Below, in pieces: positions 17,851 to 23,137 of a stretch of 64,000 nucleotides of DNA. Positions within the stretch are counted from its first letter, which is position 1. Each line of letters opens with the position of its first letter. Under the pieces are notes generated by a model. The model ran no database searches, was not told the DNA's origin, and was given only the letters and a program-made list of their open reading frames with translations. The translations under genes and the position numbers were made by a program. Source of the DNA: Picochlorum sp. SENEW3 (taxonomy: Eukaryota); NCBI GenBank assembly GCA_034226945.1, contig CP120456.1, positions 372,001-436,000 of the forward strand, written 5' to 3'.

Positions 17851-18660
17851 ATGCGGCATGGGCCTCTTTTGAAGCAAATTCAAAGACTTTGGGTTTCGAA
17901 AAGAGTGACGGGTTCCAGTGGAAACAACAGCGTCATCTCGATAGTACCAGGCTGTGCTGCACACATGAGTACGAATTATGATCGTGGGCATGGTGGAGTG
18001 TCGGAGATTCGTCATCAGAAGCGACTGTTGCGACGAGAGGTGAAGAAAGTCTTGGCACAGTTGACTGACAAGGAGATGGAAGCGCAAAGCATGCGGGTAG
18101 CATCTCGTGTGGTTGATGAATTGCGTATGATCGATTCGATAGAGTCAATGACTCTCTTCATATCGTGTCCAAAGTTGAAAGAGGTTGATACGTCGTTGAT
18201 ACTGAGACGAGCTTTGGAGAGCTCATCGGCAGAAAAAAAAGTGTATTTGCCACGAGTATTGGATTCGGATTCCAATATGCATTTCCTGCGAACTCGGCAG
18301 GGCGATACGTACGATATTGTTCCACCTTTTGGTATTCAAGAACCTACGCTGTATGCGCCTGATGGGTCGAAGAGGGAAGATATTGTAGAGTCAGACACAC
18401 CCTTGGATGTCATCTTCATGCCAGGGCTGGCATTCAGCCCACGGGGTGAACGGCTTGGGCGTGGTGGTGGGTACTATGATAGCTTTATAGAAAAATACAT
18501 GACTCATGCGAAGGAAAAGGGCTGGGATACAAAGCCTACGTTGGTAGGGTTGGCATTTGATGAGCAGATTGTGCAAGACCCTATTCCGACAGACAGCCAT
18601 GATCAGTTGGTGGATCTAATCATCACGCCAAGCTGCGTGTACAAGTGCTCCCATTCATAA
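17851..18660 (+). CDS. 5-formyltetrahydrofolate cyclo-ligase (start at 17761 or 17851)
   Basis: KRLLRREVK, EVDT, FGIQEP, DVIFMPGLAF, RLGRGGGYYD. Confidence 0.93.
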   Translation: MRHGPLLKQIQRLWVSKRVTGSSGNNSVISIVPGCAAHMSTNYDRGHGGVSEIRHQKRLLRREVKKVLAQLTDKEMEAQSMRVASRVVDELRMIDSIESMTLFISCPKLKEVDTSLILRRALESSSAEKKVYLPRVLDSDSNMHFLRTRQGDTYDIVPPFGIQEPTLYAPDGSKREDIVESDTPLDVIFMPGLAFSPRGERLGRGGGYYDSFIEKYMTHAKEKGWDTKPTLVGLAFDEQIVQDPIPTDSHDQLVDLIITPSCVYKCSHS

Positions 18661-18722
18661 ATATACAATACTAGTATGACCCTGTGAACAGATAAATTGA
18701 GTACTGGTGCTGCTGAATACAT

Positions 18723-19316
18723 CTATGGTCTCCTATCAAACGGCGCAGTGTCCTCAAAGCACACTGCAAACGCCTCCTCAACTGCCTGTTCAGCCTGTCC
18801 AGGCTTTTGGCAATATGGATTCATTTTCACCGAAAGCAACGCACGCCTCTTCACACATGTTTGATGCTGCTTTCCTACTTTAAAATGCCCTCGAAGCATT
18901 TCCATCTTGTAATTGCAATCTCCAGACAGGGATGCAGCTCGAATCTCACTACATGCATGATGTGCACAGTTGCACCAATCCAAATCCTTGGCCCGACAAT
19001 GATCATACGCATGAATGAGTTCATGTGTCAACGCATGCGTTACTTCTTCCTGTGACCCGAGGTGATTATGGCAGAGGATCACTCCATCAGGAGCGCGGAA
19101 TCCACCACCCACCTCGGCATTGCACTGCTGTACTTTGATAAAATCCTCCTCAATCGTGCATCCTGCCTCTGCTATTTTATCAAGCATGAATTTCACCATT
19201 GGTTCCCTTCTTTTAGCATAATCTACCATTCTCTGGCAGTCTTCAAAGGGCATACCAAACCATTTGGGAGGTTCCGACTCCACAGGCTCGGCAGAAGTGG
19301 TCTGTTTGGTTTGCAT
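18723..19316 (-). CDS. ATP23: mitochondrial inner membrane protease ATP23
   Basis: LTHELIHAYDHCR metalloprotease motif, HHACSEIRAASLSGDC, CFEDTAPF. Confidence 0.95.
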   Translation of the reverse strand: MQTKQTTSAEPVESEPPKWFGMPFEDCQRMVDYAKRREPMVKFMLDKIAEAGCTIEEDFIKVQQCNAEVGGGFRAPDGVILCHNHLGSQEEVTHALTHELIHAYDHCRAKDLDWCNCAHHACSEIRAASLSGDCNYKMEMLRGHFKVGKQHQTCVKRRALLSVKMNPYCQKPGQAEQAVEEAFAVCFEDTAPFDRRP

Positions 19317-19401
19317 CGAGAACCGGTGTTGCAGCTATACTATATCCATTCTGTGCTCATTCGTTATACATAATATAATTTAGAATATATTTAATGACTC
19401 A

Positions 19402-21499
19402 TTAGTGCCATCCGACGAGGGGAGATCCATGGCGCATCATACCATGCCCAACCTGATGGTGATGGCGCCGGTGAACAACAACCCGTGGTATCCTGGATGG
19501 GGGTACCCTATACGCAGGCATCCTTGATCTATCTGCGCATGCTGATGCTTGGCCTGGACGAGTTTGTCCATCACTCGAAGAGCTACGGGGTCCCTTGTAC
19601 ACCATTCTAGTAGTTCGTTTGTAAAAGTCAGACTCTGCTGTTGAACCATCATCCATCGAGTGCAGCATGGAAAATAACCACACGATACATGGGGTTAATG
19701 CGAGAGCCACTGATAATGATAGAAGAGAAGCCTGATTTGCGGCAAAGACAAGCCCGCATGCAATCGGTAATGCAATGCGGAAGCTATACCTGGTGGTTGC
19801 GGCAACCAAATTCTCATTCAATCGAAACAAATGGGCCAATGCCAAGGATCTCGAAGGCAGTGGTGATCCAGTTGCAAGCGCCATAGCGACAAGTGTACTT
19901 GTTGTGACGAGGGCTCCACCCATGGAGTGCGCAAGGAATGCAGCCAGAGAATAGATGAGAAACCCTGGAACCATTCTCGCGGCCAATGTCTGAGTGACTG
20001 TAGGAATCTGCAACAATCATCGGTAACAATCAATACATATTGATTCGTATGCAAAAGCGTTATAGATGCAATGCAGTAGTCTCGTGTCAATAGTGAATCC
20101 CTCAGATTTCATAACAAATATTCATAGAGCGCAACACCGCTCAAACGCAGCCTTCTCTGTTTCTCATCAACAGACACGCAACAATAATACAGGATGGAAG
20201 AGGAATGATGGGCACGATGGAGATGATATCGTATTGTGTCCTATTGAGTCCTCGAAACAAATACTCGTCTGCTCGCATAGTTGCATCAACGTGCTCTCAA
20301 CAGCAACTATCGTCATCGGGAATCAACACGCATATCACACGCATACCTGTCGCGTTTCCACTGGCATTGTTTCAAACAACATGCCCATAGATAGTAATGC
20401 AAGAGGAGCATGCGCTTTTGAGAGCTGCACCGTCGCATACTCCACAAGCGGAGATGGGGTTTTCCCAAGCATCATCATGGCTCCAGCAGCAACACACGCC
20501 CACACCACTGGCTGCGAGATCAAATTCCGCACAATTTCATCCATTCCAATAGGCCCTACAAATACTCTACGTGCGACCAACGCAGCTTCGTTCGCATTCG
20601 CCACAACCAATGCACATTGAGATTCATCAATAGACTTGACCAATCTCCCAGCCTCCCAAACTCCCGCGGACACTTTCCCCGTCGAATACGTCCGCACACC
20701 CACCCCTTCCATCCTACCATTCCTCCATTCTCCTTCATATACACCTCCTTTAGCAAATTTATACACGCCTCTCCCTTCCTTGGTCCCATCCAACCATTCT
20801 CCCTCGTACACAGCACCGCTGGGATAGGTGTACACACCAAACCCATCCTTGAGAGCTCCCTTCCATTCACCATTATACCAGCCCCCGTCAGTATGCTTAA
20901 AATTCTTAGGAAACGCCGGCCCAGCAGTGGAAAAATAAAGAGGCGCGAGAACCTGCGTCGCCACCATATTGACCAACAGACACACCAACCCAGCATGCAT
21001 CGCCTCCTGGCCAAAACACAAGGACACAATAGGAAGCGCAAACAATTCCATCGAAGACCCCAATGACATACCAGCCAACACACCCCGCTCCTTTGGATGT
21101 AAATATCGTGTGCTAGCCCATGAGATGATACCAGGAAGAATAACAGATGCAGAATAGAGCGACGCAGTCAAGAGCACTTGGGCAGGAGTAAGAGTAAAAC
21201 CTCTGCAGGACCATTACTACTAATTCGTCACCACGCAGTATTTTCTAGTTCTATGAGAATATATACACGCACGTGATACATGTTTGAAGAACCACAGAGG
21301 GAAGAGTCACGTAAACAGCCAAACGTCTCAGTGTCTGCACATGAATTCCAACCAATTCGTCATCGCCCATCCTCACCCATCCAATACAAGTTTACCAACG
21401 AACCATTCCATCGACTTCTGTGCACACAGATCCACGCAATGCCATCCCAATGCCATACGAGATGACACAAGGCAGTATGCCTTGGACCACAGACAGCAT
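19402..21499 (-). CDS. auxin efflux carrier (AEC/Mem_trans)-like membrane transporter with MORN repeats in the central loop; exons 21404-21499, 21273-21334, 20347-21202, 19402-20007 (539 aa)
   Basis: Spliced N-terminus ILPCVISYGIGMALRG...LRRLAVYVTLPSVV; ELFALPIVSLCFG; about 4 MORN repeats (YEGEW..G.KEGRG); QPVVWA..., APLALLSMG, RMVPG, SPLP..SLALA; three GT-AG introns in consistent phase. Confidence 0.8.
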
Positions 21500-21559
21500 G
21501 GTATGATTTCCACACAATTACACCATCACAGAGTCACATCAAATATTTATTTAATAAAA

Positions 21560-23137
21560 CTACCAGGTGCCCCAGTCATCCGGATCATCTGTAGCCAAGG
21601 CATCCTTCTTCTTGTTCTGATGTGATGCTCCATCATCACCATCCTCCCACCCATCCCACCCAATCAGATCATCATTCTTCTTCTGCTGACTACTACTGCT
21701 TGTTGTCATGGATGATTTCTGCTTCTGCGTTGATGATGTCCGTTGATCACCCCAATCTGCCCAATCATCAGCATCATCATTATCAAAATTCAAAAGGTCT
21801 TGCCCGCCTGCTGCTGCTGATCCTTTTCCCACACCACCACGAGCTTCAGTATGGAGGGATTCTGATGTCTGACGAGTAAATGACGATGGAGGATCACTAT
21901 ACACTGTCGCTGGTTCCTCAAACCCATGCCCAAGAGGAGGTGGGTTGTCCAAACTGGCATATCGACCACCCCCACCACCAACCTTGACACCGTCAGCAAT
22001 CTTCTTACTACCTAAATCAACTTGATACCCCTGCTGCGCAGCAGTCTTTTCAATCGTCGACGCCGCAGAGGCATACGCACTCCGCAACAGCGCCCACCCC
22101 TTGACACCATACTCTTTTGTCCTCTCAGCAACCCCAGCTTCCTGCAACGCATCATTCATCTCATTCGCTTTTGTCTTCGCCACCGACGCCGCATTACTCG
22201 CAAAAACAGATAAATCGCTCAACCCTTTGGTCACCATCCCAGTCACATCATCAAACCCGCCATCATGCCGCCCCGACGCCTGTGAACTCTGTGGTGCCGG
22301 TGTCGACCCAAAACCCACATACTTCCCCCCTTGACTCGGCGGAACCCCTTCAGGCTTCATCGAATTCTCTCTCTGTTTACGAGCAAAGAAATCCTCCTTG
22401 GCAGCAGCCGACCTCTCATACGCATCCAGCGTATACTCGCTGTTACTCTGATGCATTGTCTGAGCCCCAGATGCCTCACCCTCCCACGAATCCCAATCAC
22501 TCGCCCCATGCACAGCCCCTCCAAAACTCTTATTCTTCTTACCCACATGCCTCGATGCCGACGACCCCCTCCCCTTTGCAGCTGCAGAAGAAGGTGCAGG
22601 AGGTGTATACTCCCTCCCTTCCACTTCAGCCTTGAGCTTCTCCCTATAAAACTCCGCAGCAGGACTATTATACTTATCTCGCACATCCGTATGCTTCTGC
22701 ACACCGTACTTGGCAAAGAATGTATTCATCACAGAATTCCCTCCGTGCTGCATTTTGGCCAACTGATCCTGATTCCACGCGTCCATTGTCACGCTCCTAC
22801 ACACCACAGTCTCTTTTCTCTTGTGTGACTTGCAATATTATTATTACTAGTACTACTGGTACTACTTTTGTTGTGTTAAAGGAAGACGAGAGGGAGATTG
22901 CGCTCTTCTTCCTGTCATAATCGTTAGATTTTTTTTTTCGTTCAGCTGAATGACGCACCTCACAAAGCTTATATGCACCCCAAGACCCCGATGTTTACCA
23001 CTACATTCTAAGCACATGAATATCCCATACGACACAGACGCCCATTGCGGATTCTTCGTCTCACAGTCCACGCAGACCTTGTTTTCTGGCTTTGACTGCA
23101 ATTCACGCAGAATCTTGAGACTCTCGGCACTCGCCAT
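21560..23137 (-). CDS. ADP-ribosylation factor GTPase-activating protein (ArfGAP1/AGD6-7 type); intron 22797-22958
   Basis: [54 protein letters not shown]-terminal WxxW motifs. Confidence 0.95.

Follow-up and report, generated by a model that had tools for sequence, protein, structure and literature searches.

A MORN-repeat module in the central loop of a predicted AEC/PIN-like membrane protein of Picochlorum and other green algae

Introduction

The locus described here raises the question of whether a single gene encodes a PIN-fold membrane protein whose central cytosolic loop is built of MORN repeats, and what such a loop would do. The gene occupies positions 19402-21499, on the minus strand, of a 64,000-nucleotide stretch of the Picochlorum sp. 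SENEW3 genome (contig CP120456.1, positions 372,001 to 436,000; this whole stretch is called the window, and all coordinates refer to it). A first inspection of the letters (the sequence-only reading) had taken the gene for a carboxylate- or auxin-type carrier tethered to membrane contact sites, or to a partner, through its MORN array. Our analysis confirmed that the MORN-loop AEC-fold architecture is real, expressed and ancient within Chlorophyta. The product is best read as a carrier, or a carrier-derived sensor, of AEC/PIN-like fold that would be controlled through a partner-binding MORN module, and we put the probability of this reading at about 0.6.

Carriers of the PIN fold play a central part in plant development (PIN and PILS proteins) and, via LYCHOS, in animal cholesterol sensing. 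The family to which the window gene belongs bears on the question of how cytosolic loops of PIN-fold proteins control the elevator movement, as it is a natural case in which the loop is a small, rigid and well-predicted domain, found across green algal classes, small genomes included. Because there are a natural MORN-less relative and variants with and without the substrate-binding asparagine, loop-mediated control is directly testable in this family. The family also bears on the inventory of AEC proteins in chlorophytes and on the annotation of its members.

Gene structure and transcription

A scripted gene model joins four exons in phase into a protein of 539 amino acids, and in this the sequence-only reading was correct; all of the motifs that it had quoted (ILPCVI, LAVYVTLP, FALPIV, QPVVWA, APLALLSMG and SPLP) occur in the translation. 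The start codon at 21499 is the earliest ATG past an in-frame stop, the coding part of exon 4 runs from 20007 to 19405, and the stop codon occupies 19404-19402. The three introns (69, 70 and 339 nucleotides) all start with GT and end with AG. The parts of the gene are:

21404..21499, minus strand: exon 1, 32 codons in the gene model; helix M1 and the beginning of the M1-M2 loop
21335..21403, minus strand: intron 1, 69 nucleotides, GT..AG; skipped exactly in contigs of runs X16 and X17, shorter side 62 letters
21273..21334, minus strand: exon 2, 62 nucleotides, from the gene model and spliced contigs; helix M2, including LAVYVTLP
21203..21272, minus strand: intron 2, 70 nucleotides, GT..AG; skipped exactly in contigs of X16 and X17, shorter side 62 letters
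20347..21202, minus strand: exon 3, 285 in-frame codons from 21201; helices M3-M5, linker, four MORN hairpins, capping helix, helices M6-M7
20008..20346, minus strand: intron 3, 339 nucleotides, GT..AG; a 339-nucleotide skip in X16 and X17, placed 2 nucleotides off
19402..20007, minus strand: exon 4, 201 codons and the stop; helices M8-M10, extra helix M11, basic tail

Transcript support was sought in four public runs aligned to window positions 18600-22900 at 90% likeness. Two of them, X16 and X17, belong to one study and are presumably RNA; their contigs are 95-99% alike to the window, so their source is a related strain. The other two runs (X11 and X18) are probably DNA, and no splice joints were found in them over the same region. 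The third junction is less firmly shown than the first two, because the skip maps to 20006-20344 and its shorter sides have only 25 and 30 letters. Read depth inside intron 3 is 22-42, against about 280-650 across the flanking exons, and the intron is retained in one low-depth contig. The donor site of exon 1 (GTTCGT) is weak and is backed by the spliced contigs of X16 and X17 and by a gap-free N-terminal alignment to an orthologous protein (P0002, described below). These data show that the carrier gene is transcribed as one spliced unit.

It might be supposed that a MORN protein gene and a permease gene have been wrongly joined in annotation or assembly, and public models of the orthologues are indeed inconsistent: some are fused to a neighbouring ATP23 or ArfGAP gene and others are split into pieces of 269-476 amino acids. 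This supposition is refuted by exon 3, a single open frame (open reading frame 20335-21213) in which membrane helices flank the MORN repeats on both sides; as one uninterrupted exon holds all of these, the fusion is not a splicing artefact. Additionally, one X16 contig (record 13) runs from within the first MORN repeat (20856) across exons 2 and 1, so that the MORN-coding part and the N-terminal membrane exons stand on one RNA-derived contig, and the possibility raised with the sequence-only reading, that they belong to different genes, did not hold. The same domain order is found in orthologues from what we take to be five algal classes, and the probability of an artefact is vanishingly small.

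The MORN module and the membrane domain

Pfam scans of the window protein were made exon by exon. On exon 3, the MORN family (PF02493) was matched in three stretches with 70.8 bits against a cutoff of 22.5 (E = 4.1e-20). The array, which the sequence-only reading had placed at approximately 20640-20890 with about four repeats, maps to 20880-20632 and corresponds to four hairpins. When exon 3 was modelled alone with AlphaFold, the mean predicted local distance difference test score (pLDDT) was 89.7, and eight MORN strands in four hairpins were followed by a helix, with values of 97-98 in the MORN part. The closest solved structure is junctophilin-2 (Z score 19.4, 121 aligned residues, 2.3 A, 29% identity), followed by MORN4 (Z 17.9) and TIC100 (Z 17.3), while MORN1 proteins scored about 10. 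The matches to junctophilin-2, MORN4 and TIC100 run through the helix after the hairpins (model range 94-216).

The assignment to the Mem_trans family (PF03547) rests on relatives. Among 33 family proteins scanned with Pfam, 12 reached the Mem_trans cutoff of 25.7 bits, the best scores being 77 bits (P0155), 68.6 bits (P0310) and 63.6 bits (P0165). In P0155 a single stretch (residues 18-438 against profile positions 12-341) crosses the MORN insert. In orthologues matched by single halves, the N half covers profile positions of about 6-155 (ending at 135-161), and the C half runs from 196-197 to 341. As N-half matches end near position 155 and C-half matches start near 196, the MORN array occupies the canonical central loop.

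For the whole fold, AlphaFold2 was run on P0002 with a family alignment of 33 rows. Among the matches listed, P0002 is the full-length orthologue closest to the window protein (42% identical over 533 aligned residues), and its 90% cluster includes proteins of Nannochloris sp. 'desiccata'. The model has a mean pLDDT of 82.2 and a predicted template modelling score (pTM) of 0.75; most of residues 1-475 exceed 90, and the tail falls below 50 and is unstructured. Helix M4 (93-102 and 108-119) and helix M9 (376-390 and 397-404) are each broken, at 103-107 and 391-396. The central loop has eight strands forming four hairpins at 165-247 and then a helix at 250-268, and an eleventh helix (444-473) follows M6-M10. 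By pairwise alignment, these helices could be transferred to the window protein with no large gaps.

In structural alignments (VIA-align), the P0002 model was most similar to human LYCHOS/GPR155 (Z 26.7, 311 aligned, 3.3 A, model 6-442), followed by PIN8 (Z 20.6, 304 aligned, 4.0 A), PIN3 (Z 18.1, 309 aligned, 4.2 A) and PIN1 (Z 17.9, 300 aligned, 4.0 A), all three over model residues 3-448. Its loop module alone (151-273) matched junctophilin-2 (Z 19.4, 122 aligned, 2.2 A). Similarly, a Foldseek search of the PDB returned MORN proteins together with PIN3, PIN1, PIN8 and LYCHOS, in alignments of 440-470 columns, with TM-scores by target of 0.56-0.71 for the solved AEC-fold members. The sequence profile of the family, searched against PDB sequences, found the N half (E = 6.5e-10) and the C half (E = 2e-7) of LYCHOS/GPR155 and also PIN8 (E = 1.2e-8), with the C halves of both PIN8 and LYCHOS matched. 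Z scores of 17-19 against the model were likewise obtained for SbtA, NapA and ASBT, which have related crossover-elevator folds, so the fold is shared beyond the AEC family and does not by itself show a substrate.

By prediction, the window protein has an 11-helix AEC/Mem_trans/PIN-like fold, with two inverted five-helix repeats and broken crossover helices M4 and M9. The sequence-only reading had likewise seen an AEC/PIN fold in both halves, a MORN insert between them, and extra hydrophobic sequence with a basic tail at the C terminus, and each of these parts was recovered. The features of the protein are:

20929..21499, minus strand: first five-helix repeat M1-M5, residues 1-144, with introns 1 and 2 inside; helices mapped from the P0002 model
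21052..21054, minus strand: codon of Ser103 in the M4 crossover, at the column of LYCHOS Asn145 and PIN8 Asn117
20881..20928, minus strand: linker between M5 and the first MORN repeat, TAGPAFPKNFKHTDGG, conserved, 16 residues, with a nearly invariant H-x-D-G-G
20632..20880, minus strand: four MORN hairpins, residues 161-243, the fourth degenerate in sequence; from Pfam and AlphaFold
20569..20625, minus strand: alpha-helix after the MORN hairpins, residues 246-264, with conserved QCALxVxxAxEAAxxAR
19732..20544, minus strand: second five-helix repeat M6-M10, residues 273-430, with intron 3 inside; from the P0002 model and the Mem_trans C half
19639..19722, minus strand: eleventh hydrophobic helix M11, outside the 10-helix AEC core; from the P0002 model helix and hydropathy
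19405..19638, minus strand: basic C-terminal tail, probably disordered, with a [KR]-x-[RK]-M-V-Y motif

The motif of the tail is aligned across orthologues, with RMVY at 19608-19597 in the window, and the tail has 14 K/R, 6 D/E and 7 H in 83 residues.

The match of the module to junctophilin-2, its closest structural relative, raises the possibility of a tether, in which lipid binding by the MORN repeats, on a second membrane or on that of the carrier itself, would hold the carrier at a contact site, and MORN repeats have traditionally been linked to membrane association. The module has only four repeats, however, and the MORN block of the window protein carries 12 K/R and 10 D/E (a net charge of about +2). 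Furthermore, both of its ends are fixed to the membrane of the carrier itself, by the linker of 16 residues on one side and by about 8 residues between the capping helix and a short helix leading into M6 on the other, in a region modelled mostly above a pLDDT of 90, and it would have little reach. TbMORN1, for its part, was not seen to bind membranes or vesicles (PMC7725318, in part). With both ends fixed in one membrane, few repeats and near-neutral charge, the tethering at membrane contact sites that the sequence-only reading had envisaged is not supported and appears improbable.

Distribution and conservation of the family

A search with exon 3 among longer proteins gave 162 matches at E <= 0.001 among 6469 candidates, of which the 120 best were considered. 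At least 12 proteins cover at least 84% of exon 3 including both membrane flanks, and many other matches are confined to the MORN repeats. At least seven proteins have precomputed matches to both PF02493 and PF03547 (six of those 12, and P0007, with 1113 amino acids and 47% coverage). Apart from this, P0007, a EukProt model, has a TPR-containing N-terminal extension and a duplicated segment within the MORN block, and looks like a mis-assembled or mis-called gene model. A profile search of 1.84 billion cluster representatives listed 150 matches, among which 48 read as family-type by their matched range, that is, as one long stretch reaching past the MORN region; the remainder are multi-MORN proteins. 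A search with exon 4 among longer proteins found no match among 7801 candidates, a list so crowded by long proteins that the result is uninformative.

The search for this architecture across chlorophytes, which the sequence-only reading had called for, thus found a family: all 18 named sources among the matches listed are Chlorophyta, and many further members come from metagenome records. The named sources are Parachlorella, Micractinium (two species), Chlorella, Nannochloris, Apatococcus and Myrmecia; Volvox (two species), Pleodorina, Astrephomene, Edaphochlamys, Sanguina, Scenedesmus and Flechtneria; and Bryopsis, Ostreococcus and Chloropicon. Their classes are mostly as we presume them to be, those of Flechtneria and Nannochloris having been looked up.

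In a quick maximum-likelihood tree of 31 rows (support by the Shimodaira-Hasegawa-like approximate likelihood-ratio test, SH-aLRT, only), the window protein groups with P0002 and P0004 (support 99) within a Chlorellales group (99), and the tree roughly tracks the algal classes; several rows, the window included, have long branches or deviant composition, and the branch of the window protein is 1.41. Judged from these sequences, the window gene is a Chlorellales-type orthologue in a family that would have been inherited vertically throughout Chlorophyta.

Conservation was taken from the 31 alignment rows other than the window, as the mean frequency of the commonest residue. It is highest in the MORN block (0.66), followed by the helix after it (0.56) and the linker between M5 and the MORN repeats (0.55), while the membrane halves have 0.41-0.43, M11 has 0.31 and the tail 0.23. 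The near-invariant columns are almost all in the loop module, including the H-x-D-G-G ahead of the first repeat.

Among the matches listed there is one relative without MORN repeats, P0318, a transcript-derived protein of 468 amino acids with a short loop. It keeps the core, the eleventh helix and the tail, and its N half is 49% identical to Mamiellophyceae-type members. In the ESM Atlas it falls among generic AEC/Mem_trans clusters, with bacterial and archaeal ones among the nearest, and a phmmer search against PDB sequences gave merely a chance-level match to a cupin (E = 0.22). P0318 was considered as an ancestral MORN-less sister, and this was dropped: it nests inside the MORN-bearing Mamiellophyceae-type clade (support 94), so that secondary loss or a transcript isoform is likelier.

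The substrate site

In PIN8, Asn117 holds the carboxylate of indole-3-acetic acid (IAA) and adjoins the crossover proline of M4, the substitution N117A abolishes transport, and the crossover motif of PINs in M4 is P(N/Q)X-hydrophobic-hydrophobic (PMC9477730, in part). The equivalent 'key asparagine' of LYCHOS is Asn145 (PMC11525196, in part). The profile of the family N halves aligns s-l-G-s-N-l-g-l-f-a-y-P to LYCHOS 141-152 (the alignment covers 141-159), which places a family column on Asn145. In this column the states are S in 12 rows, N in 9, D in 4, A in 3, G in 2 and E in 2 (32 of the 33 rows have a letter). The asparagine is kept in the Mamiellophyceae-type branch and in a few other members. 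In the window protein the crossover reads G-S-S-M-E, with Ser103 in the asparagine column, and differs from the strict PIN motif. A polar asparagine in M5 is shared by 23 of the 32 rows, the window among them, and the Pro-x-Pro motif of M9 is also retained. The predicted M3 of the window protein (residues 64-83, LTASLYSASVILPGIISWAS), which we equate with M3 of PIN8, has no Asp or Lys. The essential Asp75-Lys79 pair of PIN8 presumably lies in M3.

A PIN-like fold, the profile match to PIN8 and the asparagine in 9 of 32 rows would suit a bona fide IAA exporter of the PIN/PILS type with an incidental MORN loop. For the window gene this is highly improbable: its crossover asparagine is replaced by serine, its predicted M3 shows no counterpart of the Asp75-Lys79 pair (as far as the two M3 helices are equivalent), and the fold, shared with SbtA, NapA and ASBT, is no proof of substrate. 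The auxin-type or carboxylate substrate proposed by the sequence-only reading is not supported for the clade of the window gene, because the crossover asparagine is serine in the window protein; in this clade the substrate is probably held in another manner than IAA is in PINs. For some other members of the family, an auxin-like carboxylate site is plausible.

Proposed working of the protein

In PIN8, M1, M2, M6 and M7 form the scaffold domain and M3-M5 and M8-M10 the transport domain, and transport by the elevator mechanism takes a rotation of about 20 degrees between the two (PMC9477730, in part). The window protein would act on a small solute, either as a crossover-elevator carrier or as a sensor derived from such a carrier. 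Its M5 would belong to the moving transport domain and its M6 to the fixed scaffold, and the MORN module would bridge both. By prediction, the M5-M6 loop is no floppy linker: four MORN beta-hairpins with an alpha-helix at their back make it a folded module, which would lie in the cytosol as in PINs; owing to the eleventh helix, the basic tail would be on the same side. As the module is predicted to be rigid and is shortly tied to M5 and M6, it seems well placed to sense or restrain the elevator movement or to present a docking surface.

MORN repeats are protein-protein interaction and dimerisation modules (PMC7725318, in part), and putative binding of a protein partner by the MORN module is plausible. 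The module may serve docking or regulation in the cytosol, by binding such a partner or by pairing two subunits, and would thereby govern the movement of transport against scaffold domain or the placement of the protein. A predicted complex of two P0002 copies (residues 1-480) scored 0.29 against a mark of 0.32, in a run made without controls or the family alignment, and weighs neither way on dimerisation.

Several points weigh against a controlled carrier or carrier-derived sensor. The Mem_trans cutoff is missed by 21 of the 33 family proteins and by every piece of the window protein when scanned singly: exon 3 matches weakly, with 12.6 bits where 25.7 are required (E = 0.053; residues 224-280 against profile positions 197-256 of 343), and exons 1, 2 and 4 give no match. 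The fold evidence comes from a stand-in, P0002, with 42% identity, in which the relative placement of domains was judged from pLDDT and pTM alone and the conserved tail (pLDDT below 50) is not docked on the MORN module. The crossover asparagine is gone in 23 of 32 rows including the window, and the M4 proline of the PIN crossover motif was not seen in the family alignment, so transport may have been lost. The literature searched gave no reports of transport, binding or localisation for any member of the family and no partner for its MORN module.

The loss of the asparagine leads to an alternative in which the PIN-fold domain of the core-chlorophyte clade, window included, no longer transports; it would sense a ligand and anchor the MORN module in the membrane, in a manner comparable to LYCHOS. 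The column concerned is that of LYCHOS Asn145, the MORN module is better conserved than the membrane halves (0.66 against 0.41-0.43), the top structural match is LYCHOS and not a PIN (Z 26.7 against 20.6), and LYCHOS binds IAA but does not transport it (PMC11525196, in part). On the other side, the crossover architecture, the M9 Pro-x-Pro and the polar asparagine of M5 are retained, and Mamiellophyceae-type members have the crossover asparagine and Mem_trans scores of up to 77 bits. Moreover, the higher Z of LYCHOS may merely reflect its conformational state, and high conservation of the MORN block is expected because the MORN consensus residues are structural. We regard this alternative as unlikely for the window gene.

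The reading as a carrier or carrier-derived sensor controlled through its MORN module can be carried further, tentatively, to a PIN-fold 'transceptor' of green algae, in which the MORN-plus-helix module bridging M5 and M6 would read out or lock the elevator state for a cytosolic partner, and in which the core-chlorophyte branch, having lost the carboxylate-binding asparagine, would have favoured signalling or docking over transport. If true, this would be a third independent way of joining a control domain to the core of the PIN fold, the other two being the long loop of PINs and the GPCR (G-protein-coupled receptor) fusion of LYCHOS.

Neighbouring genes and annotation

The carrier gene stands between two genes on the same strand. 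Downstream, at 18723-19334, is a gene for Peptidase_M76 (the mitochondrial inner-membrane protease ATP23, E = 1.5e-62), whose open reading frame begins about 68 nucleotides downstream of the carrier stop codon; one X16 contig (record 9) spans both genes. Upstream, at 21560-22837 and beyond, is an ArfGAP-domain gene (E = 1.1e-7), whose open reading frame ends (21560) about 60 nucleotides upstream of the carrier ATG, a gap bridged by record 13 of X16. In the public model of Micractinium conductrix the carrier is fused to ATP23, and in several public models of Nannochloris 'desiccata' (763-1188 amino acids, named ArfGAP AGD7) ArfGAP is fused to the carrier. As the same neighbours recur in these erroneous fusions, Chlorellales have kept the gene order ArfGAP - carrier - ATP23.

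Gene callers have difficulty with this locus. Orthologues are labelled 'hypothetical', 'PIP5K1' (Scenedesmus), 'MORN repeat domain-containing protein' (Chloropicon, UniRef) or 'predicted permease' (JGI), so the misannotation forecast by the sequence-only reading has in fact taken place.

The X16 strain has an in-frame insertion of 6 nucleotides at 19453, in the His-rich part of the carrier tail, and further in-frame insertions or deletions in the ArfGAP gene at 21771-21772, 22177 and 22533; these fit low-complexity, weakly constrained regions. The window has a GC content of 46%, the spacers around the carrier are about 60-70 nucleotides, and two of the three introns are about 70 nucleotides; the short spacers and introns suggest a compact picoalgal genome.

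Comparison with known systems

LYCHOS/GPR155 is the best match to the ten-helix core, in both halves, and like the window family it joins an AEC-fold domain to a module that is not for transport. It differs in that a seven-helix GPCR domain and a DEP domain follow its core and no folded central loop is present (PMC11525196 and PMC9330825, each in part); its effector loop (LED) is the third intracellular loop (ICL3) of the GPCR domain, not the M5-M6 loop (PMC11525196, in part). In the window family, the M5-M6 loop encloses the added module, which is made of MORN repeats, and a single further helix comes after M10; Pfam detected no GPCR or DEP family on the pieces of the window protein or on the 33 relatives. 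LYCHOS also retains the crossover Asn145, where the window protein has serine.

The Arabidopsis proteins PIN8, PIN1 and PIN3 share with the window protein the 5+5 inverted repeat, the crossover in M4 and M9 and the position of the central cytosolic loop, with about 12-13% identity in the structural alignments. The loops of PINs are short, with 43 residues in PIN8, or long, with 323-355 residues and regulatory phosphorylation sites (PMC9477730, in part), whereas the loop of the window protein is a rigid beta-sheet module, the M4 asparagine is absent, and an eleventh helix and a basic tail are added. PILS proteins, which are putative auxin carriers, likewise belong to Mem_trans, have been reported in chlorophytes and have a short cytosolic loop between their five-helix halves (PMC3470039, in part); the whole word 'MORN' is absent from that article, and no MORN module is described there for PILS. 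One 'PILS' is counted there for Ostreococcus, which may be the member of the window family found in that alga. Bacterial and archaeal AEC transporters (about 300 amino acids) have the same Pfam family and ten-helix core as the window family, without the central domain, the eleventh helix or the tail (PMC9330825, in part).

No description of a MORN module combined with an AEC/PIN fold was found in the literature searched, in keeping with the sequence-only reading, which knew of none. Among Mem_trans architectures, section 2.1 of PMC9330825 names DEP as the sole added domain, and 'MORN' is absent from the main text of a preprint on AEC-family evolution (10.1101/2024.06.26.600818), whose supplements could bear on the point.

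On the side of the module, junctophilin-1 and -2, MORN4 and TIC100 all have a MORN beta-sheet backed by an alpha-helix, as in the window protein. Junctophilin is held in the membrane by a single C-terminal anchor and has eight MORN repeats and a long spanning helix, while the window protein has four repeats, a helix of 19 residues and an 11-helix host, so that the resemblance is structural only. In the matched MORN structures, the array belongs to a soluble protein or to one with a distant single membrane anchor; in the window protein, four repeats are set inside a predicted polytopic carrier and fixed at both ends.

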